Shown here piece after piece: positions 14,599-63,500 of a stretch of 64,000 bases of DNA (the stretch's first letter is position 1; each line of letters begins with the position of its first letter). The notes under the pieces were generated by a model, which was given only the letters and a program-made list of their open reading frames with translations, did not search any database and was not told the DNA's origin. The DNA is from Eledone cirrhosa (Eukaryota), in assembly GCA_964016885.1 (NCBI GenBank), contig OZ024743.1, positions 328,414,001-328,478,000 on the forward strand, given 5' to 3'. Both the position numbers and the translations under genes were made by a program.

Positions 14599-14775
14599 AT
14601 GGCTGAATCATCTTCACCATCAATCAAAGAAGGAAAGGGGAAGTCATACTCACAGCTTCCCCCTGCCACTGTCACAGCAGCAGATGCCAAAGGCAGAGGT
14701 CAGAGAGAGGAAGAATTGTCTTCACCTGTTGACCGACCACTAGATGTAGCCACAACTACACAAGAATTTGAAAAC

Positions 14776-14806
<31 letters not shown>

Positions 14807-16462: not shown

Positions 16463-16486
16463 GTGCCTTTTCTCTTTACCACCAAC

Positions 16487-19924: not shown

Positions 19925-20187
19925 GTGGAAAAGAGGAAGGAACGAGGGAGCACCCCCTCTCTGTGCTCCTGAGGAAAAGGGTTGCACACTTTTTTCGGGG
20001 GTGTGTGCGACCCCCCAAGGCGCCTCCTCTCTATTGAGGATTTTGTTAAAAATTTTATTTTTTGTTATATCTTATTTTATTTTTATATTTTGTTATTGCC
20101 TCCTCCTTATTGAGGACGCCTTTTTGTGTAAACTCCCCCCTTTGTACTTGTCCCACTTTTGATGCCCTAGTGGCAAATAAAAGAAAC

Positions 20188-20281
<94 letters not shown>

Positions 20282-20500
20282 GCTGGGATGGACACACGCG
20301 TATAACTTGCTGAGTAAGTTCTGTTTAAATTTCTATAGAAATTCTTGTCTGATAACTTTAATTTTTGTACCATTTTGTAGAGGGACTGCCAGGTCAAACT
20401 TTGATCTGGTCAGTCTCTCAAAATATTCTACGCCTTTAGGCGAAATAGTTAAACAAAAAAAAAAAAAGTTTTTTCTTGTTGAAAAGTCAATATTTTTTAA

Positions 20501-22297: not shown

Positions 22298-22321
22298 GTG
22301 CCTTTTCTCTTCACCACCAAG

Positions 22322-25300
22322 ATGGCTATGCTAAGAGTAGGCTGTTTAAATGCGCGTGGCCTGGGCTCAACTTGGAAGCAAGCAATGCTTCTAAATGACC
22401 TCAGGTCACAACGTATAGATGTGATGGTTATTTGCGAGGCCCGGATCAGCAACGTGCGACAGCTAGCCCCCACCTTTGATGACTTTGAGATGCACGCATC
22501 TCTCTGTCAGCCCGGAGGTGGGGGTGGAGTTGTCGTTCTGCTGCAAAAACATCTGGGTCTCGCAACACAGATGGTACATTTGGACCCGGAGGGTCGACTA
22601 GTGGTTCTGGACCTTGGCAGTGGTAAAGGCGGAGCGTTTAGGTTGGTAGCCGCCTACGGCCCTTTCGGGTCAATGCGGCCGGACTTCTTCCATCGTCTGG
22701 AGACTTTTCTGGGGACGTCCCGCTCCTTGCTATTAGTGGGGGACTGGAATGGTATCCTAGATGCACGCTGGGACTACGTAGGGGCCTGCCCCGATAGAGA
22801 GGGGTGTAATAGCCTCAAAGGGTTAATCGGTCGATTTGACCTGGCCGATAGATATCGACTAGATTTTCCGACTGCGCCAACCTGGACTTGGGCAAATCGT
22901 AGCGGATCATCTAGGTCGTACCTAGATAGGTTCTTAGTTAGAATTAAGGATAAGGACTTTTTAAGTTGTCCAAAAATGCGCATGGTTGGCTATTCAGACC
23001 ACAAATTAGTGACCTGCATGGTCAACCTTGACAGAACTCATAGACAGGGCCCCGGTTACTGGAAGCTCAACTTGTCCTTGCCGGCAAGTAGAGCCTACAG
23101 GAATCGGATTAGTACGTTAGTTAAGGAACGGTTGACTGGAGCGATCGTCAACAGCAGGTGGTGGGTATCTCTAAAGAGAGAGATTAGAGTAGTCTCGATA
23201 GAATTTAGTAAGGTTCTAGCTGCGGATAGGAATAGGAAGGAAAGGGAGCTAATAGATAGAGTAGAAGAGGCAATTAGAAGCGGCGACGTGGCAAGAGTGC
23301 TAGCGTCGAGAACGGCTTTGAGCCAGTTTTTCGACGCGAAGCACGAAGGCTGCGTTGTCCGAAGTAAAATACGTGCTCTAGGGAACGAGGGGACCAAAGC
23401 TGTTAGCTGGGCCCGCGTGACAGAGGCCAACAGTGGAACTAAATCCACCATCCGGTCTTTGCGAGACCTGGATGGACGGGCGATTCTTGAGCCTAAGCAG
23501 ATGTGTGAGGCCTTTCAAAGGCACTTTGCCCGACTGTTCGGGAGGGGCGGGGAGCCGGTTGGGAACGTGGACTTCGGTCCATACCTCGACGGCCTGCCGC
23601 GCCTCTCGGACAGGGAGGCGAAGTCCTGCGAGGAGCCGATTTCGGCCGCTGAGATAGAGGACGTGCTGAGCCAATGCGGCAAACGCAAATCCCCGGGTCT
23701 CGATGGTCTTCCTTACGAATTATATCTAGCTATGCCGGACTTGTTCCCCGATCTCCTCGAGGCGGTCTACTGCAACTGGCAACAGAACGGGAGAATTCCC
23801 TGTACTGTGACCAAGGGCGTAGTCACGCTAGTGAGGAAGGACGAGAACAAGGGGGACGAAATAAGTAACTTCAGGCCCATAACACTGCTAAATACAGAGT
23901 TACAGATTTTGGCCAAGGTGCTAGCAAAGAGGTTGGCGCTTGTCGTGGGCAACCTGGTGGGAGATGCGCAGACATGCGCTATCCCGTCCAGGTCCATCCA
24001 TGACAACCTCCACCTCATGCGATACATCATAGAGAGGGTTGGGAACGAACCCGGCTTTGGTGGGGCTCTGATCAACTTGGATCAATCTAAGGCGTTCGAT
24101 AGGGTCGACCATGGTTACCTGGATGCGGTGCTAGCGGCGGCAGGCTTCGGACCCGTTTTCAGGGGCTGGATCACTGCTATGCACAGCAGCCGCATCTGCT
24201 CTAGGGTCAAGGTGAACGGCTACCTCTCGGAGCCGTTCCAAACCGCGCGGTCCATCCGACAAGGGTGCCCTCTCTCCTCCCTTCTGTATGTGTTGACTCT
24301 CGAGCCACTACTGCGGAAGTTGGAGTTGTTGCAGGGCATCCCCTTGGAACCGGGATTGCGGAAAGCGGTGTCGGCCTACGCCGATGACGTGACAGTAATG
24401 GTGTCGACGGCCTCCGAAATCGAGGCGGTCGGCACCTTACTGGAGGAGTACGAAAGGTTCACAGGGGCTAAGCTGAACCGGGACAAGTCGATCGGTTTGC
24501 AACTCGGCACGTGGGGGGGCAGACCGATGCCCTCCGATAGCGTCGTCGGACGCTGGACGGAGGGCCCGGTGAAGTTGCTCGGGGTCTGGTTCGGACCGGA
24601 CCTCCAGGTGGAGAAAAACTGGGCGGAGGTTACGAACAGGGTGTTTGCACTGACCCAGAAGTGGGCCAGTTGCAAACTATCCCTGAAAGGTCGGGCGGAA
24701 GTGGCGAACACCTACATAGCGTCCGTCATCTACTACCGCCTGACCGTAGTGCCCTGCCCAAGGGAAACCCTCACCAAGATGGAGCGCGCGCTCTTCCAAT
24801 TCCTTTGGAAGAGGCGGGCTCCTATGGTGAGGAGATCCATCTGCTGTCAACACCCTTCGAAAGGAGGGCTGGGGATGCCGTGGCTAATGATGCGTAAACA
24901 CGCATTAAGGCTACGGCACCTCTACGTATTCCTCACCGGACAACCGGTGTGGGCCTCGTTTGTGAGACGAACCTTTCCCAGACTCGTCTCACTCACCGAG
25001 CTGCAATCCTGGGTCAAGCAAAGACCGAGAAAACTGGGCGCCTGGCACACTGAGTGTGCCCAGGCGCTCACCGCCCTCTGGCAGGCGGATCCGGTTATCA
25101 GTGGAGACTCCACCGCAACATTCTATAGAGGGCTGGTACGCAGCAGGTGCGACGACGCCCTCGGAGAAGCCCTAGACATGGAGGAGGACGAACTGGCCAG
25201 CCTGTTCGGTAGGACATTCAGCCCAGGACCTATGGACAACTTCCAGAAGTCCCTGGCCTGGCAGTGCTACCGAGGGGCTTTACCCGTTCGAGAAAGGCTC

Positions 25301-25759
25301 TACAGACACGGGCGCCCGGGTAGGGACCCCGCCAAAAAGATCTGTCCCAGATGCGTGTGCGACGAGGAAACCGTTGCACACGCATTGGTACACTGCTCGG
25401 GCGTAGCCGATCTGTGGGGCTATGTCGAACAACTGCTGTCAAGGGTGGGACCGATCCGGTTGACCACCGAGTCTATTGTAATGATCAAGCCGCCTCCCCC
25501 CTTCAAAGATGAAGCAGAGGCGGTGTTTCTGTGCGTAATAGCCATGGCGAAAGAGGTTGTATGGTGGACGCGTCTGAAAGGACTGAGGTCAGGCACCTTT
25601 CTCTCTGGCCAACAACTGGTCCGTTTCTTCCGATATCATTTCGGAAGAAGGATCAGGATGGAGAGAGAGGTGCTGCACCCCAGCCGTTTCTATGAAAGAT
25701 GGGTGAAAGTGGCGAGAATGGCCCGTGTGAATGGGCCTTCACTCTACATCAGACTATAG
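22322..25759 (+). CDS. LINE ORF2: APE endonuclease + reverse transcriptase + zinc finger
   Basis: Same motifs as copy 1; open frame. Confidence 0.96.
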   Translation: MAMLRVGCLNARGLGSTWKQAMLLNDLRSQRIDVMVICEARISNVRQLAPTFDDFEMHASLCQPGGGGGVVVLLQKHLGLATQMVHLDPEGRLVVLDLGSGKGGAFRLVAAYGPFGSMRPDFFHRLETFLGTSRSLLLVGDWNGILDARWDYVGACPDREGCNSLKGLIGRFDLADRYRLDFPTAPTWTWANRSGSSRSYLDRFLVRIKDKDFLSCPKMRMVGYSDHKLVTCMVNLDRTHRQGPGYWKLNLSLPASRAYRNRISTLVKERLTGAIVNSRWWVSLKREIRVVSIEFSKVLAADRNRKERELIDRVEEAIRSGDVARVLASRTALSQFFDAKHEGCVVRSKIRALGNEGTKAVSWARVTEANSGTKSTIRSLRDLDGRAILEPKQMCEAFQRHFARLFGRGGEPVGNVDFGPYLDGLPRLSDREAKSCEEPISAAEIEDVLSQCGKRKSPGLDGLPYELYLAMPDLFPDLLEAVYCNWQQNGRIPCTVTKGVVTLVRKDENKGDEISNFRPITLLNTELQILAKVLAKRLALVVGNLVGDAQTCAIPSRSIHDNLHLMRYIIERVGNEPGFGGALINLDQSKAFDRVDHGYLDAVLAAAGFGPVFRGWITAMHSSRICSRVKVNGYLSEPFQTARSIRQGCPLSSLLYVLTLEPLLRKLELLQGIPLEPGLRKAVSAYADDVTVMVSTASEIEAVGTLLEEYERFTGAKLNRDKSIGLQLGTWGGRPMPSDSVVGRWTEGPVKLLGVWFGPDLQVEKNWAEVTNRVFALTQKWASCKLSLKGRAEVANTYIASVIYYRLTVVPCPRETLTKMERALFQFLWKRRAPMVRRSICCQHPSKGGLGMPWLMMRKHALRLRHLYVFLTGQPVWASFVRRTFPRLVSLTELQSWVKQRPRKLGAWHTECAQALTALWQADPVISGDSTATFYRGLVRSRCDDALGEALDMEEDELASLFGRTFSPGPMDNFQKSLAWQCYRGALPVRERLYRHGRPGRDPAKKICPRCVCDEETVAHALVHCSGVADLWGYVEQLLSRVGPIRLTTESIVMIKPPPPFKDEAEAVFLCVIAMAKEVVWWTRLKGLRSGTFLSGQQLVRFFRYHFGRRIRMEREVLHPSRFYERWVKVARMARVNGPSLYIRL

Positions 25760-26023
25760 GTGAGGAAGATGAAAGACCAAGGGAGCACCCCTTCTCTGTG
25801 CTCCTGAGGAGAAGGGTTGCACACTTTTTTCGGGGGTGTGTGCGACCCCCCAAGGCGCCTCCTCTCTATTGAGGATTTTGTTAAAAATTTTATTTTTTGT
25901 TATATCTTATTTTATTTTTATATTTTGTTATTGCCTCCTCCTTATTGAGGACGCCTTTTTGTGTAAACTCCCCCCTTTGTACTTGTCCCACTTTTGATGC
26001 CCTAGTGGCAAATAAAAGAAACA

Positions 26024-26087
<64 letters not shown>

Positions 26088-26092
26088 CGTTT

Positions 26093-26725
26093 ATGCCCTA
26101 GATGCGTGCGTCACGAAGAAACCGTGGCGCACGCATTGGTGCAATGTCCTGGCGTGGCTGATCTGTGGGGCTACGCCGAACAACTGCTGTCGCGGGTGGC
26201 GCCGATTAAATTGACCGCCGAGTCCGTGATGACAATCAAACCGCCTCCCCTCTTCACAAAGGAAGCAAAGGCGGTTTTTCTGTGCGTAATAGCCATGTTG
26301 AAAGAGGTTGTTTGGTGGACACGATTGAAAGGTCTGAGGTCAGGCAACTTCCTCTCTGGCCATAGTCTGGTCTACTTCTTCCGATATCACTTCGGAAGAA
26401 GGATAAGAATGGAGAGAGAGGTGCTTGGCCACAGGCAGTTTTATGAAAGGTGGGTGATAGTGGCGAGAATGGCTCGTGTAAATGGGCCTTCTCTGTATAC
26501 CATCCTGTAGGTAAAGAAGTAAAGGAGAGGGGAGCACCTTCTCCATGTGCTCCCCGGGCAAAGGATTGCACACTTTTTCGGGGGTGTGTGCAACCCCCAT
26601 CACGTCCCCTCCCTTTTGAGGTTATTTTCGATTATTTTCATGTTACACCCTTTTTACTCGATTATATGTAAACTCCCCCTTTGTATTTGTCCCTTCTTTT
26701 TATGCCTTTATGGTAAATAAAGAAA
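26093..26725 (+). mobile_element. Tx1-group LINE copy 3, 5'-truncated, diverged subfamily, with target-site duplication
   Basis: ORF 26106..26510 aligns to ORF2 C-terminus; flanked on both sides by ...TATCTATCCGTTT. Confidence 0.92.
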
Positions 26726-26793
26726 TCTATCTATCTATCTATCCGTTTGAATGACTGTCTGTTTGTCTGTCTGTTTTTCTCTCTCCCTCTACA

Positions 26794-27590: not shown

Positions 27591-30500
27591 TTGATAGAAC
27601 TAGGAGGTAGTTATTACTACAACATTACTATATTATGTTGATAGTACCAGGAGGTAGTTATTACTACAATATTACTATATTATGTTGATAGTACCAGGAG
27701 GTAGTTATTACTACAACATTACTATATTATATTGATAGTACCAGGAGGTAGTTATTACTACAACATTACTATATTATATTGATAGTACCAGGAGGTAGTT
27801 ATTACTACAACATTACTATATTATATTGAGAGAACTAGGAGGTAGTTATTACTACAACATTACTATATTATATTGATAGTACCAGGAGGTAGTTATTACT
27901 ACAACATTACTATATTATATTGAGAGAACCAGGAGGTAGTTATTACTACAACATTACTATATTATATTGATAGAACCAGGAGGTAGTTATTACTACAAAA
28001 TTACTATATTATATTGATAGAACCAGGAGCTAGTTATTACTACAACATTACTATATTATATTGATAGTACCAGGAGGTAGTTATTACTACAACATTACTA
28101 TATTATATTGATAGTACCAGGAGGTAGTTATTACTACAACATTAGTATATTATATTGATAGTACCAGGAGGTAGTTATTACTACAACATTACTATATTAT
28201 ATTGAGAGAACTAGGAGGTAGTTATTACTACAACATTACTATATTATATTGAGAGAACTAGGAGGTAGTTATTACTACAACATTACTATATTATATTGAG
28301 AGAACCAGGAGGTAGTTATTACTACAACATTACTATATTATATTGAGAGAACTAGGAGGTAGTTATTACTACAACATTACTATATTATATTGATAGTACC
28401 GGGAGGTAGTTATTACTACAACATTACTATATTATATTGATAGTACCAGGAGGTAGTTATTACTACAACATTACTATATTATATTGTGAGAACCAGGAGG
28501 TAGTTATTACTACAACATTACTATATTATATTGATAGTACCAGGAGGTAGTTATTACTACAATATTACTATATTATATTGAGAGAACTAGGAGGTAGTTA
28601 TTACTACAACATTACTATATTATATTGAGAGAACTAGGAGGTAGTTATTACTACAACATTACTATATTATATTGAGAGAACCAGGAGGTAGTTATTACTA
28701 CAACATTACTATATTATATTGAGAGAACTAGGAGGTAGTTATTACTACAACATTACTATATTATATTGATAGTACCAGGAGGTAGTTATTACTACAACAT
28801 TACTATATTATATTGTGAGAACCAGGAGGTAGTTATTACTACAACATTACTATATTATATTGATAGTACCAGGAGGTAGTTATTACTACAATATTACTAT
28901 ATTATATTGAGAGAACTAGGAGGTAGTTATTACTACAACATTACTATATTATATTGAGAGAACTAGGAGGTAGTTATTACTACAACATTACTATATTATA
29001 TTGAGAGAACCAGGAGGTAGTTATTACTACAACATTACTATATTATATTGAGAGAACTAGGAGGTAGTTATTACTACAACATTACTATATTATATTGATA
29101 GTACCGGGAGGTAGTTATTACTACAACATTACTATATTATATTGATAGTACCAGGAGGTAGTTATTACTACAACATTACTATATTATATTGTGAGAACCA
29201 GGAGGTAGTTATTACTACAACATTACTATATTATATTGATAGTACCAGGAGGTAGTTATTACTACAATATTACTATATTATATTGAGAGAACTAGGAGGT
29301 AGTTATTACTACAACATTACTATATTATATTGATAGTACCAGGAGGTAGTTATTACTACAACATTACTATATTATATTGAGAGAACCAGGAGGTAGTTAT
29401 TACTACAACATTACTATATTATATTGATAGTACCAGGAGGTAGTTATTACTACAACATTACTATATTATATTGATAGAACCAGGAGCTAGTTATTACTAC
29501 AACATTACTATATTATATTGAGAGAACTAGGAGGTAGTTATTACTACAACATTACTATATTATATTGATAGAACCAGGAGCTAGTTATTACTACAACATT
29601 ACTATATTATATTGAGAGAACTAGGAGGTAGTTATTACTACAACATTACTATATTATATTGATAGTACCAGGAGGTAGTTATTACTACAACATTACTATA
29701 TTATATTGAGAGAACTAGGAGGTAGTTATTACTACAACATTACTATATTATATTGAGAGAACTAGGAGGTAGTTATTACTACAACATTACTATATTATAT
29801 TGAGAGAACTAGGAGGTAGTTATTACTACAACATTACTATATTATATTGAGAGAACTAGGAGGTAGTTATTACTACAACATTACTATATTATATTGAGAG
29901 AACTAGGTGGTAGTTATTACTACAACATTACTATATTATATTGAGAGAACTAGGAGGTAGTTATTACTACAACATTACTATATTATGTTGATAGTACCAG
30001 GAGGTAGTTATTACTACAACATTACTATATTATATTGAGAGAACCAGGAGGTAGTTATTACTACAACATTACTATATTATATTGAGAGAACCAGGAGGTA
30101 GTTATTACTACAACATTACTATATTATATTGATAGTACCAGGAGGTAGTTATTACTACAACATTACTATATTATATTGAGAGAACTAGGAGGTAGTTATT
30201 ACTACAACATTACTATATTATATTGAGAGAACTAGGTGGTAGTTATTACTACAACATTACTATATTATATTGAGAGAACCAGGAGGTAGTTATTACTACA
30301 ACATTACTATATTATATTGATAGTACCAGGAGGTAGTTATTACTACAACATTACTATATTATATTGAGAGAACCAGGAGGTAGTTATTACTACAACATTA
30401 CTATATTATATTGAGAGAACTAGGAGGTAGTTATTACTACAACATTACTATATTATATTGATAGTACCAGGAGGTAGTTATTACTACAACATTACTATAT

Positions 30501-30774
30501 TATATTGAGAGAACTAGGAGGTAGTTATTACTACAACATTACCATATTATATTGATAGTACCAGGAGGTAGTTATTACTACAACATTACTATATTATATT
30601 GATAGTACCAGGAGGTAGTTATTACTACAACATTACTATATTATATTGAGAGAACTAGGAGGTAGTTATTACTACAACATTACTATATTATATTGAGAGA
30701 ACTAGGAGGTAGTTATTACTACAACATTACTATATTATATTGAGAGAACTAGGAGGTAGTTATTACTACAACAT
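27591..30774. repeat. 47-bp minisatellite, ~68 copies
   Basis: Unit GA(T/G)AG(T/A)AC(C/T)AGGAGGTAGTTATTACTACAACATTACTATATTATATT. Confidence 0.98.
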
Positions 30775-30947
30775 AGCGAGGAAATGCTTTGCATGGAGCC
30801 AATCCCACTCTTTGGACATTGAATACATTTACCCAAAAGAAGAACTGGTAGACATCATTGGATGCCACGAAGTCGGAGTGCCCTTCTCCTAGAGACATGT
30901 CTTAATGAAGACCAGGAGTCCCTCGCGCCATAAAAAAAAACTTTATA

Positions 30948-31139
30948 GGATGGCCGTTGACTCTCATGAGTTCCTCCACCCTTTTGATGGTTTATTTTTT
31001 CATTCCGCAGGGTGTTTAAATATTCCCCTCCTCACCAAACAAGCTTGGTGGGGTTGCTGGTTTAGTCAGCGACGATCCGACCATGCACAGGTTGTACTGG
31101 GTTACATGTTACCAGTAGCGCTGAAGAGCGACCTGACAT
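30948..31139 (-). mobile_element. Interspersed repeat related to the left part of 51718-52327
   Basis: Minus strand GCTACTGGTAACATGTAACCCAGTACAACCTGT...GACTAAAC...GGTGAGGAGGG matches ~51720-51910. Confidence 0.7.
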
Positions 31140-31159
31140 ATATATATACATATATATAT

Positions 31160-31426
<267 letters not shown>

Positions 31427-40168: not shown

Positions 40169-40883
40169 TATCTTTATGATGTATTGTTTTTGTTTATGCC
40201 ACGAAACTACGTAGTCGAGGAATCTAGGAGCAGTTTAGGTATGATACATTTTATTACTAATTATATCTAAATGTTTCTTCTCTCTTCATAATGTATTTTT
40301 AACTCTGATACTGGTTCAGTCTAGTTCAACCGGATTGGTCTGTCCCAGTCATTCATTGAGCAACATCGATGAAGTTGGCACCCTTAACTCACGGTTGGGT
40401 GCGGATGCATTCATGTATATGTGTGTGTCCGCATGTATCTGTGTGTTTCTAAATATATTGTTAATAACTCCCTCTGGTCGAGCAATCTTTGAAGTGTGGG
40501 GACTGCTGGAAAGCTTCCATTACTCATACTTCTCGCCCCCTTCACAACCTCTTCTACGGCTTCGATATAAATACCCCCTCCGCCTCCGTGGTATTTTCTT
40601 CGGGGTTATAAGAGGCTTAGCTCTGTTTCTCGACCGTTATATCGCGTGACTATCTCCCCCTCCGCCTTTTGGGATTCTTTCTCACGTCGTGTAGACGCGT
40701 TCTTGAGACTATTAAAATGAGGTATCCTCTTGATAAGTCGGCAGACCTCGCAAGGACTCTATATCTTTATGATGTATTGTTTTTGTTTATGCCACGAAAC
40801 TACGTAGTCGAGGAATCTAGGAGCAGTTTAGGTATGATACATTTTATTACTAATTATATCTAAATGTTTCTTCTCTCTTCATA

Positions 40884-40887
<4 letters not shown>
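40169..40887. mobile_element. (TA)n-flanked non-coding element with ~125-bp terminal direct repeat
   Basis: 40169-40295 recurs at 40760-40887 (~591-bp period). Confidence 0.75.
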
Positions 40888-40954
<67 letters not shown>

Positions 40955-40956
<2 letters not shown>

Positions 40957-43152
40957 AGGTTGCTGTTTTCTAATTGTTCTTTAAGTTTAAGTTTAAGTCT
41001 ATTGTCCCACCATACCATGAATAGGTTAGCTATGTCACCTGCAATGCTAACACCAATGGCTGCTCCCTCCTCTTGGGCATATGTTTTTCCATTAAATTTG
41101 AACATATGTTCCTTAAGGGTTAATTTTATACTGGCCCCCACTGCATGTGCAATAATTTTCTTTAGTTCATCGAGGTTTTCGGGGGTCCGTATGGCTCTAG
41201 TCCACCCGTTCCATCTTTCTGTGTGGGTTTTCTTGGCCATTGAGGTAATGGTAGGTGGTCTGCCTCTTGCTGGTGTTGTAGGGCACAGGTTGCTAAGGTC
41301 ATATGTATCTAGATAATCATTACTATAGGTAAGTTTAAGTAGGAGTCCCAGCTCACTGGTATCAATCCCACGGAATTCAACATTGCTCTCACTGATCATT
41401 TCTACGCATTTCTCCACAGCAAAATCCACGTCAATGGATGGATATAGGGACACAACATCCATACTACCAATTATGCAGTTTGTTAGGTCCCTAGATCGGT
41501 TACTTTCGCTGATTCTGCTGAGGAGGTCCTCCGTGCTGTCACATATATCTGGGGACATTTCAATGAAGGGGCGTATGATCATAGAGAGGAAGTAGGAAAG
41601 TCTGTAGTTACTAGCAATGTTAGCTCCACAGACTGGCCGTGTTGGTGGTCCTGTGACAGGGTCACTGCTCGTTTTATGGTCTTTTCGAAGCCCATACAAC
41701 GCTGGCACGTCATTGTTCCAGGCTTGGAAGTTGTTGGCAGCCCTTTTATTGGGCTGCATTATGTTCGTCCACATCATCATATGGGCATTGAGGGTTTTCT
41801 CCCTATCCTCATGCTCTTGTGGTGTTACTTCTCTTGTGTTAGTGATGTGGGGTTGCATTGCCTGGATGTAGTTTGACAGACTGTTAACCGACATTCTGCC
41901 AGACTTGTCTGTTGGAAAGCTGCAATCTCTCCATTACGCGAGCGCTGCATGAGCTTACGCAAGCCATTTGCAGATTTTTCTCCCAGTTGCTGGACCTCCA
42001 TTCTATTTTGCTTATTGCTATACTGTTCTGTAATATTTCTAAGTTTAGATCTAGCTATACTAAATTGTGCTTCTGTTTGTTCATCGACCTGCGACGGCAA
42101 TTGCGTGCGTTTGTTAAAAGCTAAAGTCGTGGCGTGGACTCGTCGTAGGTCGAAGGACATATCGGAAGGATTATAAAAAGTAGAGTTCCAGGATGCTGCT
42201 TTATGTGTACTATTGCTATTGTTAGTTGCGTTGTTTCTATTTCTATTTCCACCAACAGCCTCATGGTTGTTTCTGTGTCTCTAATTATTACCCCTGTCTC
42301 TTTCCTCTGGCTCATTGTTATTATCTACTCTATTTTGTGTGACTGTGTGTTCGTTCTGGTTATTTTCTCTGTCAGTATCGATAGTCTCCCTTCTCCTCTC
42401 AATCCCATTACCTTCCCTCACTTCTGTGTTACTGTCATTACCTGTTTTCTGTGTCTGTGTTTGTTAAGATTGTGGTGGTGGTGAGAGGCATAGAATATGT
42501 GTGTGTTGTTGTTGTTGTTGTTGATGTGTGCTGTTGTTGATGTGTGTTGTTGTTGTCTCCGTGTATGTTATTATTGTTGTGTGTGTTGTTGTTATTGTTG
42601 TTTGTGTCTGTGTATCTGTTGTTGTTGTTTCTGAGTATGTTATTATTGTTCTGACAAGCATTTTATCATATTTACCTTATTATATGTGGCATATTTAGGT
42701 GGTAGCTGTAATATCGATAATTCATCAGAGTCGACTGTAGTGTTGCCGTATATATTTGTGTTGTTGTTGTTGAATTCATCTGTTAATGAGATATCGGCCA
42801 TGTTTATACCATCAATCTTGTCTGGATATTTATCCCTATTCTCTGAAGTTTCTTGGTTTAGTTTCATCTGTTTGAGCCACCTTAATTTCTTGTTAAAGTG
42901 TTTGTCACATTCTTGAACAATGTACTTTTCTTCGAGACATATAAGGTTTATATATATTAATTTTTCTCTTGGTGTGGTGATCTTAGTTATTTCTTGTATT
43001 AGGTTACGCTTATGTTTTTCTTGATGACTCAATTCTCTGTAAATCTTCTTTTTTATGTTTAGAATTAATGTTCGTTTTAGCCTATCTGCTTGCTTTTTGG
43101 TAAGTTGTAATCTTCTTACATCGGGTTTGATGTTATTGTTTTTCGTAGACAA
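40955..43152 (-). pseudogene. PLE reverse transcriptase, frameshifted and truncated before the catalytic DD motif
   Basis: LPPKYA; LYGLRKDHK, PTRPV, SMDVVSLYPSID, YAQEEGAAIGVSIAGDIANLFM. Confidence 0.85.
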
Positions 43153-49997: not shown

Positions 49998-50072
<75 letters not shown>

Positions 50073-51285
50073 CTGCTTCTATTGCTGATTATGCATGAAT
50101 AATAACTTTGCCAATTACTTTATAACAACTTTTATAACAACTAATATATCGTGACTGCTTAAATTCTATCGCACACTAACCTAAACCTGCTTATGCATGG
50201 CTTCTTTTTATGCCTTAAATGTATTTACTTGTTTCACCCAGCAATATCATATATTAACCACATGTTCTGGAGTGAGACCTATGCCTTTGTGATACCTTTC
50301 TATATACTTGTGAACACCAATTGGCTACCTAGTTCGGGTACCTACTGACATACCTTGTGTATGTATAGTATGATGGTCATTCGAATTACTGTGGTCCTTT
50401 GTGATGTACTAAAAAATCTCTTCACGCCTGTATATAAACTACTGACATCCTACTCGCTTGTGTTGCTAGGAACTGCGCTTGTAATAACTTGCTTCTCTAA
50501 GGACTCATAACATATGACTTTTTCTCAATTTATTAAATATTTTTAATCTTTTTTAATTTAATTTTATCTTATTATTATATTATTATTATTATTTTTTAAA
50601 AATGTTATTACCATTTATTAATATTTTATTATGTTTTTTTTAATATTAATTTATTGTATTTTAATTTATTTTTAGTATATATCTTTTATTTAATTGTTAT
50701 ACTTTATTTCATTTTATTTTTCTTCATTTCATTTTATTATATTATCTCTACTATTATTATTTTTTATCTTTATTTTTATATTTTTCATTATATATATCTT
50801 TTATTTAATTATTTTACTTTATTATATTTTATTTTTCTTCATTTCATTTTATTATATTATCTCTACTATTATTATTTTTTATCTTTATTTTTATATTTTT
50901 CATTATTTTTTATTACTTTAATATAATTTATATTATGTTTTAACATTTGCCTGTATTTCCTTATGTACTTTTTATATATTTTTATGTATTTTTTTATGTA
51001 TTTCGTATGTATTTTTATGCATTTATATATTTTTATGTATTTATTATGTACTTTTTAATGCTTTCACACTTTTTGATTTTAAATTCTACATTTTTGAGTG
51101 CCATCTACTGTGTCTTCATCTTATTGAATCCAATTGTACCTTGGTATTTTGCAGTGTTGCTTAGTAACCCCAGCATGAACCTATTTGTTAGCTATCTCCA
51201 ATCCCCCTATTATTTTTTATGTTTTTTTTTATTGTTCGTGTGACTAAGTTATTGTGGGGCTTATACTCAATACGGTATTTGTTGA

Positions 51286-51330
51286 GCTCTGATGATTCCT
51301 ACCTAAATGTGAGGATGAAACATTGTTAGT
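51286..51330 (+). ncRNA. Minimal type I hammerhead motif
   Basis: GCT-CTGATGA-TTCCT...AGGAT-GAAA-CATT-GTT-AGT within a (TA)n-flanked insert. Confidence 0.6.
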
Positions 51331-51536
51331 GAATAAAGACTGTTTGAGTATGTAAGCGTTCTTTGGTTTCTTTTGCATATAACGGCTCTGTCTATGTACA
51401 TTGAGCTAACACAATACTGCAATAATACAGTACGGTGAGTAAGTGTTTATGCACATATGCTCCGAACTTTACGTAAATAAATATATATATATGAAATTTT
51501 AAGCTTGTTGAATCCCAACAAAATAAATATAACCTC

Positions 51537-51610
<74 letters not shown>

Positions 51611-51717
51611 TATCGAGTTGCAGCCATCATGTATGTATGTATGTATGTATGTATGTATGTATGTATGTATGTATGTATGTATGTATGTATGTATGTATGT
51701 ATGTATGTATGTATGTA

Positions 51718-52327
51718 TGTCAGGTCACCAGTTGGTGCTACTGGTAACATGTATCCCAGTACAACCTGTCTCATGGTCGGGTCGTTGGCGACTAAACTGG
51801 CAACCCAACCAAGGTTTCTTGGTGAGGAGGGTGACTTTGGACATCCTGCAGGACTAAAAACAAAACCTGTCAAAGAGCAAAGGAGCTCTTAAAAGTCAAT
51901 GGCCATCCAAAATCACCGGGAGAGATGACTCCTTAGCCTATTTCAAGGCAGAATTCTAGGAGAAGGAAAACTCTGATATAACACCTGCAACCCTGATGGT
52001 ATCCAATGATGTTGACTTGTTCTTCTTTTTGGTAAATATCATCTTGGTTAAGAGAGTGGGACTGGCTTAGTGCAGTGCCTTTGATCACTATAAAAGCTTC
52101 ACGGCACAGGCATTGCTTTATATCTGGAGATCTCTCTGCACTTGTCGTCACATGGGACCATGGGCCCAGCACTATGTGTCAATAATTGTCACAAGTGTAG
52201 TGTTTGTACCAGAGTTTTCAAGTCGCTGGCTGGACTAAAAAGTCACACTCGTTCAGCGCATTGGTAGGGGTTCTCCTACATGGATATAAAGTAGTGGCCG
52301 TACTCGAAAACGAGTTGGCAGCCACCA
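51718..52327 (+). mobile_element. ~610-bp non-coding element flanked by (TATG)n
   Basis: Right ~285 bp recurs at 60696-60982; terminal GAGTTGGCAGCCACCAT has a near-match at 51614-51630. Orientation is inferred. Confidence 0.65.
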
Positions 52328-52404
52328 TGTATGTATGTATGTATGTATGTATGTATGTATGTATGTATGTATGTATGTATGTATGTATGTATGTATGTAT
52401 GTAT

Positions 52405-53020
52405 GTTCTTCTGGTTTTATAATTTCACACATTTTTGCCAATACAGAGAGAGTCGGTTTCTAACATAGACACAAGAATCTCTCATTGGAATTTTCACATC
52501 AACTAGAGATATGTATGCATGTATGTGTAGATATAGATGTTATTGTATGTGTGGATGTGTATGTTTTGAGTTGCATGTGTGCATGTGTATATGCTTAGTA
52601 TCTGTACATGTGTATATGCAGTTATTAGATGCAACATTTTTAGAATGTTTTACATATTTTTACTGTTCAATTAATGGATTGTACTTGTAATTTCCTAACT
52701 AGTTGTGTTCATTCTGTTCCTGTGAAGCCTAGCTTCTCAATATTTGTATTGAGGCAGTTACTAACATACCCCAGTGCCCCAATAATCACAGGCATAAATC
52801 TGAAGGTGTAATCAGGGTGGAATATCTGCAGATTTCTCATAATTTCTGCATAAATATTCTCCTTTTCGCTAATCTTTGATATTATATTGGCATCTGCTGG
52901 GCAGCTAACTTCCACTACTGTGCATGCCTTCTTTTCCCTGTCCCATATCATAATATCTGGTCTGTTATGCCTGCATCTTATTGGGGTTTTTACTGAAACA
53001 TTCCACCAGTACTCTTTCAT
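52405..53020 (-). mobile_element. R4/Dong-like LINE family B, 3' fragment (RLE domain + 3' UTR)
   Basis: EYWWN...HNRPDIMIWD...VVEVSCP...KENIY; (TATG)n on both sides. Confidence 0.88.
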
Positions 53021-53048
53021 ATGTATATGTATGTATGTATGTATGTAT

Positions 53049-54458
53049 GTTTTCTCTTTCTCTTAATTTCGAGTATATTTTTTTGACCGGCCACCTTCCT
53101 GGTGGCAAGGTTGTAAAAGAAAAGAAATTGTCATCCCTTGAATCGCAAGAATGTTTTGCAAATTTTGAAGGTGCCAGCTATCGCAGCCATTTGTAGACTA
53201 TGAATTAGGGAGCTGCGCTTTTTGTCCGCAAATCCAAGTTCGGTCATACTTTGGTCCAAGCGGGTTGGTATATAACCCGTAGCACCAATAATGATGGGTA
53301 TGAAGCTAAAGGTGTATCTTGGATACTGGATTTGTAAAATCCTCATCAATGGTCCGTAGATGTCCTCCTTCTCCTGTATTTTTCTGACAACGTTGACATC
53401 AAGTGGGCAGCTGATCTCCACAACAGAACACGTTTTCAATGTGTGGTCCCAAACTACAATATCAGGCCGGTTGTGCTTTAATTTGGTGGCAGTTTTTATT
53501 TTCAGGTTCCACCAGTATTCCTTAGTGCCATCTGTCTCAATATATTCTTCCTCGTTTGTTGTTAATTTTGTTTTCCGAAGTGCGTTCCAGATAGTTCTAG
53601 CTATCCCATCGTGTCTCATGAGGAGGTAGTAGCGAGATGACATTCTTTCGCAGCTGGCAACAATGTGGCTTACATCCTCGATCTTTGTTTTACATAGCCT
53701 ACATTTATTGTCAGCTGCTGGCCCTCCTCTTTTGTGCAGCAGATATTTGGTAGGGAGTTCTTGTTCCTGTATTGCATAGAGATATCCCTCAAGGTGTGAT
53801 GTCATAAAATTGTCGGAACTCCATGCCAGGCTTTTTGAGTGGTTTATCCCCTCTATGGTCTGTGTTTTACGCCTCAAGTATCCATGCACAACTTTCTCTG
53901 TAAATTGGTCAATTTTTTTTCCTTGTTTGAACATTGAATAGGATCTTCCGATTTCTCTGGGTGAGAGATTTATATCAGGCTTTATTCCATATCTCTCCTC
54001 CAGATCAGTCGCTATTCTAATGATATTTCTTTTTTCATGCTCATAAACCTGAGCAAGATGGTCGCCAACCTTTTTCCTCTGTTGAAGGTGTTGCTTCAGT
54101 GTTACTATCCGGGTCTCATATGTTGTTAATATTGATTTTAGACCCCGGCCACCTTCCTTGCGTGAGAAGTATAGCCTATCCACATCACCATTGATGTTAA
54201 AGTTCCCAGTAACACTGAGAAGTTTTCGAGTTCTAACATCCATCTCACTTAGTTCTTGCAATGACCAGTTCAGTAGGCCAAATGTTGGCGTTAGAATTGG
54301 CACAGCATAGGTATTGTGGGCAATGTATTTGTTGTATGCTGACAGTTCTGATGACCATATTTTTTTTACTCTTCTGAGGTATTCATTTCTGGTTCTCTCC
54401 TTATTTATGGGTCCATCATATCTGAGATTCTCATCCTGTCCAAGATATCTGTAGTTGT
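53049..54458 (-). mobile_element. R4/Dong-like LINE family A, 5'-truncated copy with open frame
   Basis: YRYLG, EGGRGL, CRLC...HIVASC, RHD, HNRPDIVVWD...VEISCP; (TATG)n on both sides. Confidence 0.93.
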
Positions 54459-54525
54459 ATGTATGTATGTATGTATGTATGTATGTATGTATGTATGTAT
54501 GTATGTATGTATGTATGTATGTATG

Positions 54526-57500
54526 TTTTCTCTTTCTCTTAATTTCGAGTATATTTTTTTGACCGGCCACCTTCCTGGTGGCAAAGTTGTAAAAGAAAAG
54601 AAATTGTCATCCCTTGAATCGCAAGAATGTTTTGCAAATTTTGAAGGTGCCAGCTATCGCAGCCATTTGTAGACTATGAATTAGGGAGCTGCGCTTTTTG
54701 TCCGCAAATCCAAGTTCAGTCATACTTTGGTCCAAGCGGGTTGGTATATAACCCGTAGCACCAATAATGATGGGTATGAAGCTAAAGGTGTATCTTGGAT
54801 ACTGGATTTGTAAACTCCTCATCAATGGTCCGTAGATGTCCTCCTTCTCCTGTATTTTTCTGACAACGTTGACATCAAGTGGGCAGCTGATCTCCACAAC
54901 AGAACACGTTTTCAATGTGTGGTCCCAAACTACAATATCAGGCCGGTTGTGCTTTAATTTGGTGGCAGTTTTTATTTTCAGGTTCCACCAGTATTCCTTA
55001 GTGCCATCTGTCTCAATATATTCTTCCTCGTTTGTTGTTAATTTTGTTTTCCGAAGTGCGTTCCAGATGGTTCTAGCTATCCCATCGTGTCTCATGGGGA
55101 GGTAGTAGCGAGATGACATTCTTTCGCAGCTGGCAACAATGTGGCTTACATCCTCGATCTTTGTTTTACATAGCCTACATTTATTATCAGCTGCTGGCCC
55201 TCCTCTTTTGTGCAGCAGATATTTGGTAGGGAGTTCTTGTTCCTATATTGCATAGAGATATCCCTCAAGGTGTGATGTCATAAACTTGTCGGAACTCCAT
55301 ACCAGGCTTTTTGAGTGGTTTATCCATATATGGTCTGTGTTTTACGCCTCAAGTATCCATGCACAACTTTTTCTGTAAATTGGTCAAATTTTTTATCTTG
55401 TTTGAACATTGAATAGGATCTTCCGATTTCTCTGGGTGAGAGATTTATATCAGGCTTTATTCCATATCTCTCCTCGAGATAAGTCGCTATTCTAATGATA
55501 TTTTTTTTTCATGCTCATAAACCTGGGCAAAATGGTTGCCAACCTTTTTCCTCTGTTGAAGGTGTTGCTTCAGTGTTACTATCCGGGTCTCATATGTTGT
55601 TAATATTGATTTTAGACCCCGGCCACCTTCCTTGCGTGAGAAGTATAGCCTATCCACATCACAATTGAAGTTAAAGTTCCCAGTAACACTGAGAAGTTTT
55701 CGAGTTCTAACATCCATCTCACTTAATTCTTGCAATGACCAGTTCAGCAGGCCAAATGTTGGCGTTAGAATTGGCACAGCATAAGTATTGTGGGCAATGT
55801 ATTTGTTGTACGCTGACAGTTTTGATGACTATATTTTCTTTACTCTTCTGAGGTATTCAGTTCTGGTTCTCTCCTTATTTATGGGTCCATCATATCTGAC
55901 ATTCTCATCCTGTCCAAGATATCTGTAGTTGTCACCTGACTGCAGAGGTTGTATTGTCAGGCCGTTCATCTCTAGATTTCTAGAGGAGGGCACAGCTCTT
56001 CCACGTTTTACTGCCAAATATGCACACTTGGACTCACCAAATTTCATTTTGATGTCGGTTGAAAATTGTGTAATGAGGTCCAATTGTTTCTTGATGTCAT
56101 TGATATTTGGCCCATACAACTTCAGGTCATCAACAAAGAAAAGATGGGAGATACTTCTGGGCCCACTTCTTTGTCCACCTTGTTTCCTGAGTAGGTAAGA
56201 TAGTGGATTCAGTGAGAGAACGAAGAGTAGCACTGACAAGCTATCACCCTGAAAGATGCCCTTCTGGTAATGTATCTTATCAGTCTTAACCTGCTCCTTC
56301 TCACCTCTAATGATCAAATTGGTGTACCAGTTCTTGGTCAGGCGTTCAACAGCAGCTACAAATGCTTGTGGGACTTTAGCTAACTGTAAAGCCTTAATAA
56401 TCCACCCATGAGGTACACTATCAAATGCTTTTTGATAGTCCAGCCACACCACAGTCATGTTTCTGCGATTCTTTGTTGTTTTTTCCTGAATCATTTTGTT
56501 AGTAGGTGATCTATGCAACCCCACACCTCCCTCTTTCCACCAGCTTGCTCAGGTGTTATGATGTTGTTGGTAGCACAGTGATCCTGTAAGAACAGGTTAA
56601 GGCATCCAGTATATAATTTATACATGATGTTTTGGCAGGCAATTGGGCGGTAATTTTTAGCAAGGGTGGTTTGGCTATTTTTGGGAATGAGGAGAGTAGT
56701 GGCAGTTGATAACCATCTGGGAAGTTCTTGTGTGCCCTTAATGGTTTCTGTAAACAGCCGTATGAGATCTTGCCGATAGAAAGTGAAATTCTTCAACCAG
56801 TATCCTGTAATGAGGTCTGGGCCTGGCGATTTCCTATTCGACATTTTCTGTAGAGCTGTTTCCAGTATTGACCCATTGTCTGGACATGTTGGCAGTAGTC
56901 CTGTTCCAGTTCTTTTAGCCAATTAGTTTGTCTGTTGAATCCGTCATTCGTTTCCCATACAGATCTCCAGTAGCTCTCAACCTGTTCTTTTGAAGGGGTG
57001 TCGTTTACAGGGATTGAGCTTTTGCCACCGAAGCTGCGATAAACTGATTTAGGATCTCTGGCAAACAATCTATTTAGCACTTGTCGTTTATGTGCTGTTG
57101 ACTTATATTTTAGTCTTTCTGTTGTAGCTGTGAGTTGTTGTTTCAACTGGTGTAATTTGGAGTTCAAAGTTTTAAATTTTGTATCTCCAAATCGTCTCTC
57201 TAACTTTTTCTTTAGGTCTTCCTGGTGTCGTGTGAAGTTGCTCTCTATGTTGCATTTCATAACGACTGCGATGTGTGAGATACTTCGTCTCAGGGACAAA
57301 ATTTTGGTTTTTAAATTTCGCATCCACGCTGGTTCAGGCTTTCTGTTTGTATCTTGATTGCGTGGTTTTAGATGTGTGTTATATGATAGCAATGTGACAG
57401 CTGAAACATATAACAAAACATTAAGCGTTTCAAATGTCGTTTCTACACCTTTAGATCGTATAGCCTTCAGATAATTGCCAGCTATTTCGTTCACCGCTTC

Positions 57501-58578
57501 CAATTCCAATTTAGTGGGTTCTTTACTGACTCTAGTGTTGTATGGTCTATCACTCACATTAAGTCTGTGTATCTCTTGAAACATATCTTTCCATATCACT
57601 TGTAGGGTGTCCACAAGTTTTTGGTGCTCTGTTTGTTCAGTAGAGTCATGAATCTCAGCCTCGTTGTTGATGTGGTGACAATTACTACTAGAGTTAGCTG
57701 ACCTTTCTCGCTGTTCTTCAGTGGAAGTGGGATGGATTTCAGCAAAATTGTTGGTGAGCTGTTCACTGTTAGATTTAGCTGGCCATTCTCTTTGTCTGTC
57801 AGTGGAGGTGGGGTGGTTGTCTACAAGGGCTGTATTTGTAGTATCACTCAATTCCGTTAGATGTACCAATTTACATCTAATGATACGTTTTGCCTGTTCA
57901 TTTAAATGCTTTGGAGAAAAGTCTAATTCTGGGTGTTTGGAGTTCCATAAAGTTTTTAGCCTTTGCATAAAACCGAACTTTTGGGGTTCAGATGTTTGTA
58001 TGCTTCATATAATACTTTGTTAAGCTCGTAGCTCCACTGTACACAACGGTTGTTTGCGATTTGGTCGAAGGAGACTTGTACGTTTTGCCATGATGAGTTC
58101 GTCTATTCACTAATATTTCGTATTTATTTTTCATAATAGTCGATGATCTTCTTTAAAAGTTTCGACAAAGTTCTGTCAGAATCAAATTTAAAGTTATTCA
58201 CAGCTTGGGTAATATTTCTTTTCAGTTAGTTTTTAATTCTACAACTGTGTTTTAACGTTGTTCTTGAATCGTTTGAATCGAGAACAAAAAGAACCGTTAC
58301 TTAGTATATTCCTTTATGAATGTAATATAATATAACAACGCTGTATTTATATGTTAAAGTTTATGTATCATTCATATAAATAGGTGTTCTACAACTTATT
58401 CACAACATATTCACAGTTCAAACACTTATGTTTTTGTTTCTGAATCGAAAACGTTACTTGTATATTTCTTTATAAATGTAATATAACAACGTTGCATTTA
58501 TATGTTAAAGTGTATGTATCGTTCATATATCATAAGTGTATGTATCGTTCATATAAATAGGTGTTTTACAACACACTC
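54526..58578 (-). mobile_element. R4/Dong-like LINE family A, near full length
   Basis: Single-ORF RT + CCHC + restriction-like endonuclease; 3' end as in the 53049 copy; (TATG)n on both sides. Confidence 0.93.
54607..58093 (-). pseudogene. RT + zinc knuckle + PD-(D/E)xK restriction-like endonuclease, multiple frameshifts
   Basis: KSPGPD, NYRPIAC, WLDYQKAFDSVPH, GIFQGDSLS, HLFFVDDLKLY, RHD, RPDIV split over five ORFs. Confidence 0.92.
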
Positions 58579-58677
58579 ATGTATGTATGTATGTATGTAT
58601 GTATGTATGTATGTATGTATGTATGTATGTATGTATGTATGTATGTATGTATGTATGTATGTATGTATGTATGTATG

Positions 58678-60648
58678 TTTTTCTGGTTTTATGATTTCAC
58701 AAATTTTTTCCAATAGAGAGAGAGAGTCAGTTTCTAACATAGACACAAGATTCTCTCATTGGAATTTTCACATCAACTAGGTAGATATGTATCCATGTCT
58801 GCATACATGCATGTGTATATATGGATGTTATTGTATGTGTAGATGTGTATGTTTTGAGTTGTATGTGTGCATGTGTATATGCTTAGTATCTGTACATGTG
58901 TATATGCAGTTATTAGATGCAACATTTTTATAATGTTTTACATACTTTTACTGTTAGTTCTGCAGATGTTAGTTCTGCAGAGTCTGCACCTGTTATCACA
59001 TCTAGGTGTTTTGCCTGCATCCCTATCTCTTTTGTGAATCAGGTATTTCGTCTTAATTTCCTGTTCTTGGATTGCAAAAGCGTATACTTCAAAGTGGGAG
59101 CCAATATAGCGGTTGTTGGTCCAAGATAGACTACTTTCCTTATCTATATTACTCTCACTCTGGAGCTTCCTGGCAACATATCCATGCATGGTTTTTTGCT
59201 GATAAGCATGTAGTTTTTCATCCACTGATTCACTGCGATACTGCTGAGCGACTTCCCTGGGTGTGAGTTTTTGACTGTCACACAGGGAATATCTCTCGAG
59301 GAGTTCCTTCCCAACTCTCATGATCTTATCTGTTTCATGCAGATAGACTTGCTCGAGATACGGGCTCTACGCTTCGAGGTTCGTAGATGTTATCGGAGGG
59401 ATATGATGCGACATTCAAATGTTGTCTGGACTGATGTTAGGCCTCTGCCTCCCTGCTTACGTTTCAAGTAAAGGTGGTCTATGTCACTGTTGATGTGGAA
59501 GTTTCCGGTGTTGTTTAGTATTTTTCGAGTTCCAATATCAACTGCTCAGATTTTGTCTATCGTCCATTTGAGTATTCCAAACGTTGGTGTTAGGACAGGC
59601 ACAGCAAACACATTGTGAGCCACTGTTTTGTTTTGCGCAGAGAGTTCCGATGACGAGATCTTTCTTAATCGGGTGTAGTATTCCCTGGTTACGCGTTCTT
59701 TATTACAGATACCATTATAGGATATGTTCTCATCTATCCCCAGGTATCTGTAGCAGTCCTCATCAGATATCAATGAAACAGTTAGGCCATTGTTGACAAT
59801 GTTGCTAGATTGGGTTGTTGTTTTTCCCCGCTTTACAGTCATATATGAGTATTTATCTTGGCCAAACTCCATTCCTATATCCTTTGAGAACGTTGTAACC
59901 AGGTCAAGATTTTTCTTCATCTCATCCATGTTCTTGGCATAGAGTTTCAGATCATCCACAAAGAAAGTATGGGTTAGGTTCGTATTTCTATCCTCCTGTG
60001 AGCCAATGATGTATCCTTCACATTTCTTGAGCAGAAAGGACAAGGGGTTTAATGACAGGATGAATAATATCACAGAGAGACTGTCTCCCTGAAATATACC
60101 CCTGCAATATTTTATTTTATCAGTGAAAATAGAGTGCCCTCTCTCTGTCTTTAACCTTAGGATAGTAGCCCAAGAAGAGGACAGCCTCTCTATGGCTCTG
60201 ATAATAATGTCTGTCTCCTTTAAGAACTTGTTAGTAGAGGTCAGTAAGATACCTCCGATAGAATACCAGTTTTTTGTACCAGTAGTCGACAATCATGTCT
60301 CTTCCTGGTGTTTTCTTATCTTGGAGTTTTCCTATCACAGTCTCAAGGGTACCCTCACTTATTTCGTATTTTTTTGTTGTAGTGTAGGAGCAAGCAATAG
60401 TTCTTTCGGATTTCTTTTAGCCACACTGCATCTTGGTTGAAATTCTTCTTTCTACCCCATATTTTGCTCCCAAAGGAATCTGTCTTTCTGGGATGGGGCC
60501 TTAGTGACACTTATTATTTTGTTCTTCAGATCTCTATAGACTGATGTTTGGTTTCGTCTGAATCTTTTATTAAGCACTTTTCTCTCATCTACCTTCTTCA
60601 AGTATCGGCGTTTTTCGCTAACAGCTCTCAATTCTTGTTTGAGGGTTA
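58678..60648 (-). mobile_element. R4/Dong-like LINE family B, 5'-truncated with internal deletions
   Basis: GIFQGDSLS, HTFFVDDLKLY, CRLC; 3' UTR matches 52405-52665; RLE domain missing at ~58955. Confidence 0.88.
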
Positions 60649-60695
60649 TGTATGTATGTATGTATGTATGTATGTATGTATGTATGTATGTATGT

Positions 60696-60982
60696 ATCTT
60701 GGTTAAGAGAGTGGGACTGGCTTTGTGCAGTGCCTTTGCTCACTATAAAAGCTTCACGGCACAGGCATTGCTTTATATCTGGAGATCTCTCTGCACTTGT
60801 CGACACATGGTACCATGGGCCCAGCATTATGTGTCAATAATTGTCACAAGTGTAGTGTTTGTACCAGAGTTTTCAAGTCGCTGGCTTGACTAAAAAGTCA
60901 CACTCGTTCAGCGCATCGGTAGGGGTTCTCCTACATGGATATAAAGTAGTGGCCGTACTCGAAAACGAGTTGGCAGCCACCA
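60696..60982 (+). mobile_element. Truncated copy of the (TATG)n-associated non-coding element
   Basis: Highly similar to 52041-52327. Confidence 0.75.
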
Positions 60983-61289
60983 TATATGTTTGTATGTATG
61001 TATGTATGTATGTATGTATGTATGTATGTATGTATGTATGTATGAATGTATGTATGTATGTATGTATGTAAGTATGTATGTATGTATGTACGACTGATTA
61101 GCAGATCGATATTGAAGCGAGGTCTATAAAATCGATAAATAACTCGAGTCGATCATCTGTGAAACATACGTCACGTTCGGTTATGTGGATGTGTGTGTAG
61201 GGTGTCGGGGAAGGGAGACATGGGGTTTACTTAAAGAATATAAACGTACCGTCACTATATAGGAGAGATTGCCACACGCTTTTAGCCTC

Positions 61290-61640
61290 ACCCCGCCACT
61301 ACCGCCATATCACCGACACCCCCTACACCACCACGACACCGACACCCCCTACACCACCATATCACCGACACCCCCTACACCACCACATCACCGACACTAC
61401 CGACACCCCCTACACCACCACGACACCGACACCCCCTACACCACCATATCACCGACACCCCTACACCACCATGTGTCCGACACCACCGACACCCCCTACA
61501 CCACCACGTGTCCGACACCCCCTACACCACCACATCACCGACACCCCTACACCACCACATCCCCGACACCACCTACACCACCACGTGTCTGATAGCCCCT
61601 ACCCCACCACGTCACCGACACCCCCTTCACTACCACCTCC
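61290..61640. repeat. C-rich degenerate minisatellite (CACCGACACCCCCTACACCAC)
   Basis: Direct reading. Confidence 0.85.
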
Positions 61641-61699
61641 TGTACTGAGTCTTTTGAGAGGAAGTCCCGCAGAGAAATGTTTCTTGAAGATGAGAAAGA

Positions 61700-63500
<1,801 letters not shown>

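Follow-up and report, generated by a model that had tools for sequence, protein, structure and literature searches.

Dong-like retrotransposon families between (CATA)n arrays in the octopod Eledone cirrhosa and their likely preference for the repeat

The four copies and their junctions

The window analysed here is the whole stretch of 64,000 nt from the octopod Eledone cirrhosa (contig OZ024743.1, positions 328,414,001 to 328,478,000), and its positions 52406-60646 are occupied by four co-oriented, minus-strand copies of retrotransposons without long terminal repeats (non-LTR) that belong to two families, A and B. Each copy is flanked on both sides by (CATA)n, which reads (TATG)n on the forward strand (Table 1), and none of the four is intact. 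In our view these are broken copies of two Dong-like families with a restriction-like endonuclease (RLE), which likely insert into (CATA)n by sequence-specific target-primed reverse transcription, a reading to which we assign a probability of about 0.78. The five arrays separating or bounding the copies are perfect or near-perfect, and perfect runs of the repeat cover 517 nt within the cluster compared to 140 of the 54,499 nt outside it, so that the presence of the repeat on both sides is not due to chance.

Table 1 Coordinates of the clustered copies, the repeat arrays and the adjoining RTE-like sequences.
Feature	Positions	Strand	Description
(TATG)22 array	51629-51720	+	Tail of a short RTE-like 3' stub (~51605-51631); 5' flank of the RTE-derived element
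RTE-like element	51720-52329	+	Internally deleted, 5' leader joined to the C-terminal C2H2-type end of the open reading frame (ORF); (ATGT)n tail
(TATG)19 array	52330-52405		Tail of the RTE-like element at its 3' end, also flanking copy 1 on the 3' side
Copy 1	52406-53023	-	Family B; 5'-truncated; RLE domain and 3' untranslated region (UTR); premature stops near the C-terminus
(TATG)6 array	53026-53049		Right edge imperfect
Copy 2	53050-54457	-	Family A; 5'-truncated; frame open across thumb, CCHC knuckle and RLE
(TATG)17 array	54458-54525		Between copies 2 and 3
Copy 3	54526-58581	-	Family A; 4056 nt, nearly full length; frameshifted; AT-rich 5' UTR
(TATG)24 array	58582-58677		Between copies 3 and 4
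Copy 4	58678-60646	-	Family B; 5'-truncated; internal deletions remove the RLE and part of the N-terminal region of the reverse transcriptase (RT)
(TATG)12 array	60647-60694		Sole upstream flank not serving as the 3' tail of another element
Second RTE-like copy	60696-60982	+	5'-truncated; 97% to 52041-52329; followed by degenerate (TATG)n to ~61090

On the element strand all four 3' ends enter the repeat in one phase, as GAAGAA followed by CATACATA in copy 1, GAGAAAA followed by CATACATA in copies 2 and 3, and GAAAAA followed by CATACATA in copy 4. The 5' ends of all four copies are preceded by (CATA)n, and the four 5' junctions show microhomologies of 1, 5, 3 and 3 nt (3 nt with the repeat at copy 2), compared to a chance mean of 0.41. 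An initial annotation of the stretch had proposed four co-oriented insertions from two diverged families with (TATG)n on both sides and 3' ends of the form GAAAA/GAAGAA; the first proposal is confirmed by all four junction pairs, and the second likewise holds for every copy. Identity reaches 97.7% over 1408 nt between copies 2 and 3 and 89% over the shared 278-nt 3' end of copies 1 and 4, while families A and B show approximately 68% DNA identity in patches and 36-52% protein identity. The flanks are microsatellite, with no rRNA match in 50000-62000. Although (AT)n is threefold more abundant in the window than (ACAT)n (1616 nt versus 528 nt), no copy of either family lies inside its (AT)n arrays, nor in its (AG)n arrays.

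To extend the junction analysis beyond the window, four public sequencing runs were mapped onto copy 3, so that family A only was covered. The read depth declines from 3' to 5' in all four runs, as expected from 5' truncation. Among the best 24 of 919 loose-end rows, ranked by support, 13 lie on the 5' side of the element, and three of these continue into nothing but (GTAT)n, two in run X4 (54632 and 54793) and one in run X13 (55261; 447 reads, which may stem from one locus). None of the three corresponds to a junction in the window, nor does the element itself contain this repeat at these positions, the background frequency of a 9-nt (GTAT)n run being 0.13%. The possibility raised in the initial annotation, that the copies carry (CATA)n at the 3' end only, is thereby contradicted by three 5' truncation junctions. 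Of the remaining ten 5'-side rows, two are at AATT library sites, one fits letters that the window copy lacks, four look by eye like coding sequence from sister families, and three are taken up below. High-count loose ends at 54605, 54636, 54637, 54682 and 54956 in the restriction site-associated DNA run are at AATT with an agreement of ~0.35 and were dismissed as library joins. Given the ranking by support, the single organism label and the restriction to family A, these data show repeated 5' joining to the repeat and give no frequency.

The 5' UTR of family A contains a tandem unit (~58292-58387 and 58449-58539, 83.5% over 97 nt), and copy 3 starts part-way into it. One public-read contig extends 146 letters beyond 58567, and copy 3 may therefore be without its true 5' end. 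Rfam matches of microRNA type on the repeats were dismissed as compositional.

Around the four-copy cluster lie parts of a 610-nt plus-strand element, which we take to be RTE-derived from its C2H2-type motif and the likeness of its leader. A short stub and the 610-nt element, which end in (ATGT)n, come after an (AT)n run, and the stretch 52041-52406 recurs at 60696-61061 with 97.3% identity. As observed on the plus strand, 51605-52329 and 60696-60982 are RTE-like non-autonomous elements with (ATGT)n tails. Most likely the array began as an (ATGT)n RTE tail and then received the four RLE copies, which point the other way. RTE elements often carry microsatellite tails, and for one O. bimaculoides RTE insertion a target site duplication containing CATACATACATA is given, with one occurrence in one supplement file (PMC9115989).

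Encoded protein and relatives

Copy 3 encodes, in this order, an N-terminal three-helix domain, an RT (FVDD), a CCHC knuckle and the RLE. The RVT_1 profile matches copy 3 with E 7e-19 and copy 4 with E 4.5e-11. Copies 2 and 3 of family A contain the CX2CX8HX4C knuckle as well as the RHD, RPD...E and EK..IY motifs, and copy 1 of family B contains RPD...E...EK..IY. The Exo_endo_phos domain of apurinic/apyrimidinic endonuclease (APE) type was not found in the window pieces or in the full-length relatives P0002 and P0189, while the same domain search did match it in the window's own APE-type ORF2. Judged from their sequence, with RT, knuckle and RLE motifs, shared 3' ends and no LTRs, families A and B are RLE-type non-LTR retrotransposons.

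A phmmer search of the PDB with copy 2 gave 0 matches. A profile of 24 relatives matched R2 structures best (E 5e-52), the RT of LINE-1 being matched too, and R2 was also the best Foldseek match (1e-34, 16-20% identity) of the predicted structure of the full-length relative P0002 (pLDDT, the predicted local distance difference score, 90). R2 (R2Bm, R2Tg, R2Pm) thus shares RT, CCHC knuckle and PD-(D/E)XK RLE with families A and B and is their best PDB match in both sequence and fold; it differs by the low identity, by its target, which is 28S rDNA and not a microsatellite, and by the N-terminal zinc fingers that A and B are without. The N-termini of 32 aligned rows form a W..ELN three-helix domain in which no conserved Cys/His of zinc finger type was seen, and a clade-wide motif S-x-RRxNRDY is present. 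A fold search with this domain was rich in Myb/SANT domains (best Z 7.1; atlas match Rap1 Myb 0.85), while Foldseek returned no match at E<=0.001. The R4 clade, with R4, Dong, Rex6 and EhLINE, is not known to carry N-terminal zinc finger motifs, a feature shared by the relatives of A and B.

A protein search with copy 2 gave 168 relatives, 23 of which form a close group at 38-59% identity. Among named proteins, one of Argonauta hians is closest to family A, and the other relatives (insect, fish and unnamed) are at approximately 30% identity. Three midpoint-rooted trees of 56, 62 and 29 rows were built. Families A and B fall in one separate clade with 100/100 support in the careful tree and a long stem of 0.41-0.59, and family A is sister to Argonauta. 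A grouping of A, B and Argonauta as one clade was rejected (p-AU of the approximately unbiased test 0.025; this grouping was defined once the first tree was known, and the sequence of B is incomplete).

Altogether 41 loci (L001-L041) were examined, and four of the tree-placed ones belong to the A/B clade (L001-L004). A search with alignment A1 gave no match in viral contigs or bacterial genomes; a search with the broader alignment A2 gave 30 + 1 loci, and none of its 19 tree-placed loci is in the clade of the window. Loci L020, L022, L024, L026, L031-L033, L035-L037, L039 and L040 were left out of the trees as multi-copy or short. Besides A and B, the only clade members with visible ends carry (CTTA)n: L002 ends at its 3' side in (CTTA)11 (4651-4694), and L004, with a frame open for 1163 codons, starts at its 5' side with (CTTA)10 (1-58) followed by CATAC variants. 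These two are 68% identical in DNA, and their ends suggest (CTTA)n as a putative second tetranucleotide target in the same clade. The stretch ACATACATAG near the 3' end of L003 is too short to count, and the ends of L001 are not reached.

Outside the clade, nine loci have (TAA)n adjoining the element, on both sides in L030 and L041, on the 5' side in L017, L024, L034 and L038, and on the 3' side in L009, L021 and L025. These (TAA)n-flanked outer relatives reproduce the pattern of Dong and act as a positive control. Most other loci are without a flanking repeat, often owing to an early contig end. Closest outside the clade are proteins from insects and fish together with the (TAA)n-flanked elements, which agrees with Dong and Rex6, in trees that contain no named reference and no outgroup from another clade. 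The Dong-like kinship suggested in the initial annotation gains support from the RLE architecture, the profile match to R2 and the (TAA)n-flanked outer relatives.

Long (TTC)n was observed upstream of the outer-group loci L014 (4084-4353) and L036 (3513-3711), whose branch mates L012 and L021 are near (TAA)n; this may be a further target shift or chance. The thirty loci L011-L040 are found in bacterial genome records but encode animal-type RLE retrotransposons, several of them amid eukaryote-like microsatellites, and are likely host contigs binned into metagenome-assembled genomes.

In silkworm, mosquito and the Biomphalaria snail, Dong elements target TAA (PMC3812793), and of their relatives Rex6 likewise targets TAA while R4 targets 28S rDNA (PMC1635306). 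Dong (Bombyx mori), DongAg and DongBg resemble families A and B in having a single RT-RLE ORF without N-terminal zinc fingers, and Dong, too, inserts within a microsatellite that continues on either side of it, with truncated copies in tandem. Dong carries a self-cleaving 5' ribozyme (PMC3774820). Rfam gave no ribozyme match for the 5' end of copy 3, which may be truncated, and its 5' 159 nt fold no better than shuffled sequences (z -0.95). Families A and B are set apart from the outer (TAA)n group by an identity of approximately 30%, by the separate long-stem clade, by S-x-RRxNRDY and, within their subclade, by K..(I/T)Y instead of K..KY. Families A and B work like Dong, yet they are not Dong in the strict sense, since they sit not in (TAA)n but in the tetranucleotide (CATA)n, at four of four window copies and three read junctions. 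The microsatellite flanks also differ from the 28S rDNA insertion of R4 in the strict sense.

Waldo elements, which belong to the R1 clade, have an N-terminal APE endonuclease, in contrast to the C-terminal RLE of A and B, which have no APE domain. The ACAY repeats targeted by WaldoAg1, WaldoAg2 and WaldoFs1 include (ACAT)n, the very repeat of A and B (PMC3812793), and Waldo is a case of a convergent target reached with an unrelated enzyme. The initial annotation had raised the possibility of a new RLE specificity; as ACAY is already the target of APE-type Waldo, the novelty is confined to RLE elements. Among RLE elements on microsatellites, Togen (NeSL-related) resembles A and B but targets a different repeat, (TG)n, and some HERO families also target microsatellites (PMC4640811). 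Since microsatellite-targeting RLE elements are already known, the finding would be a new target and no new mechanism. In the literature search, which extended neither to Repbase and Dfam nor to Kojima and Fujiwara 2004 and Fell et al. 2025, no RLE element came up that has (CATA)n as its target, and a prior description is for this reason quite possible. According to PMC13586686, Fell et al. 2025 found several site-specific families, whose targets are not given in the excerpts of that paper.

In Octopus vulgaris, Dong-R4 comprises 51 families and 92.7 Mb, with recent activity of 5 families and 1129 recent insertions (PMC13282606). Octopus Dong-R4 elements are thus abundant and recently active long interspersed nuclear elements (LINEs); the nearest named protein to family A is likewise octopod. 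The excerpts of PMC13282606, PMC9115989, PMC8967140 and PMC10294476 name no target sequence for octopus Dong-R4, and the word Dong does not occur in PMC12988792 and PMC9068888.

Likely target preference and alternative explanations

By analogy to R2, the protein would bind the (CATA)n repeat and nick the strand that reads TATG, always at one phase, and reverse transcription would be primed at this nick. Truncated copies would then be completed through short microhomology, and every insertion would leave (CATA)n at both sides and so renew the target, with the consequence that later copies of either family could pile up in tandem. The cleavage specificity for (CATA)n is putative. Families A and B probably belong to the R4 clade, and a Dong-type lineage likely moved to tetranucleotide targets; more than likely cannot be said of either the membership or the direction from TAA to tetranucleotides, as the trees are midpoint-rooted and hold no named R4, Dong, Rex6, NeSL or HERO row, which is in itself a point against our reading.

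Several further observations weigh in the same direction. Three of the four 5' arrays in the window double as the 3' array of a neighbouring copy, so that 60647-60694 alone counts here as an upstream target independent of the other copies. Two window copies are the basis for family B, and the three (GTAT)n read junctions all come from one organism label and from family A. Rows 54859, 55930 and 58118 are unexplained and may join other flanks. In the subclade of A and B the first K of K..KY is kept while the second is replaced by I or T, and in R2Bm, where the first K is catalytic, a change of KY impairs cleavage in part (PMC4838377). The Myb/SANT likeness of the modelled N-terminal domain may be a weak lead only. 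Finally, the RTE-like element sits twice in the same arrays, which thus attract an unrelated LINE too, and this keeps alive a rival in which the tail of the RNA sets the preference.

According to this rival, the CAUA-ended element RNA can prime solely at a TATG run already nicked by an RLE of loose specificity, so that a genuine preference exists although the protein does not read the repeat. It agrees with the single phase of the 3' junctions and with the (ATGT)n tail of the unrelated RTE-like element; moreover, 3' microsatellite-like repeats have been proposed to choose the primer site in RTE elements (PMC6007223), and homology arms on the template are able to redirect R2 orthologs (PMC13586686). 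We nevertheless consider it unlikely, as R2-type RLE proteins position the cut by their DNA-binding domains (PMC4838377) and the target repeat follows the protein tree, with (TAA)n outside a single clade and both (CTTA)n and (CATA)n within it, although this last argument cannot separate protein from RNA readout because tail and protein are inherited together. The shared arrays, the accumulation of the RTE-like element and the three unexplained rows would also suit an explanation in which the repeat is a mere 3' tail made at insertion and the locus a chance or generic hot spot, with LINEs landing in the tails of each other. It appears very improbable, considering that the array at 60647-60694 is nobody's 3' tail, that (GTAT)n adjoins three independent 5' truncation points elsewhere, and that the (AT)n arrays, although more abundant, and the (AG)n arrays hold no copy. 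That the cluster arose by local duplication or as an assembly artefact, and not by separate insertions, could be thought from the near-identity of copies 2 and 3 and from the recurrence of 52041-52406; we find it scarcely credible, since copies 2 and 3 differ by 31 mismatches, the 5' ends of the copies are distinct and show microhomology, the two families are far apart in protein sequence, and the read junctions would be left unexplained.

Going beyond the insertion of families A and B into (CATA)n, we may tentatively picture a branch of undescribed and widespread Dong-like RLE elements with RRxNRDY that left (TAA)n for tetranucleotides, the octopods having (CATA)n and a sister branch (CTTA)n, with octopod RTE (ATGT)n tails supplying sites and much of the octopus Dong-R4 load being non-random; this wider picture is possible, but we would sooner expect it to fail in some part than to hold as a whole. 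If true, a (CATA)n preference would explain the tandem pile-ups and bear on claims about where octopus Dong-R4 elements land. The TAA, CTTA and CATA series in one protein family would make the determinant of RLE specificity testable beyond R2, and it would be a natural case of RLE retargeting, relevant to the mining of RLE elements as insertion tools. With RTE (ATGT)n tails creating targets for a second LINE, one LINE family would seed the targets of another in octopods, a concrete link between LINEs and the growth of microsatellites.

Other elements in the window

ORFs with RT-like motifs, recognized by eye, lie at 6054-7475 (+) and 40860-41933 (-) (YRDD; SMDVVSLYP). They presumably resemble Penelope-like elements, and neither had a Pfam match at E<=0.01.

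A second microsatellite-bounded LINE array is present on the plus strand, with copies at 14377-20188, 20283-26022 and 26088-26726, each having (TATC)n on both sides. It consists of two full-length two-ORF APE-RT elements, 87% identical and with open second ORFs of 1153 aa, and a third copy that is 5'-truncated; we take these elements to be L1/Tx1-like. Within the window the repeats are thus sorted, all three APE-type LINE copies being in (TATC)n and not in (CATA)n, and the APE-type LINEs at 14377-26726 are likely specific for (TATC)n/(GATA)n.

A large satellite with a 47-nt period occupies 27591-30774 (67.7 copies, 95% matches). Beside it, after a TA-rich run, a diverged RTE-like 5' part (74-77%) is found at ~30770-31160 on the minus strand.

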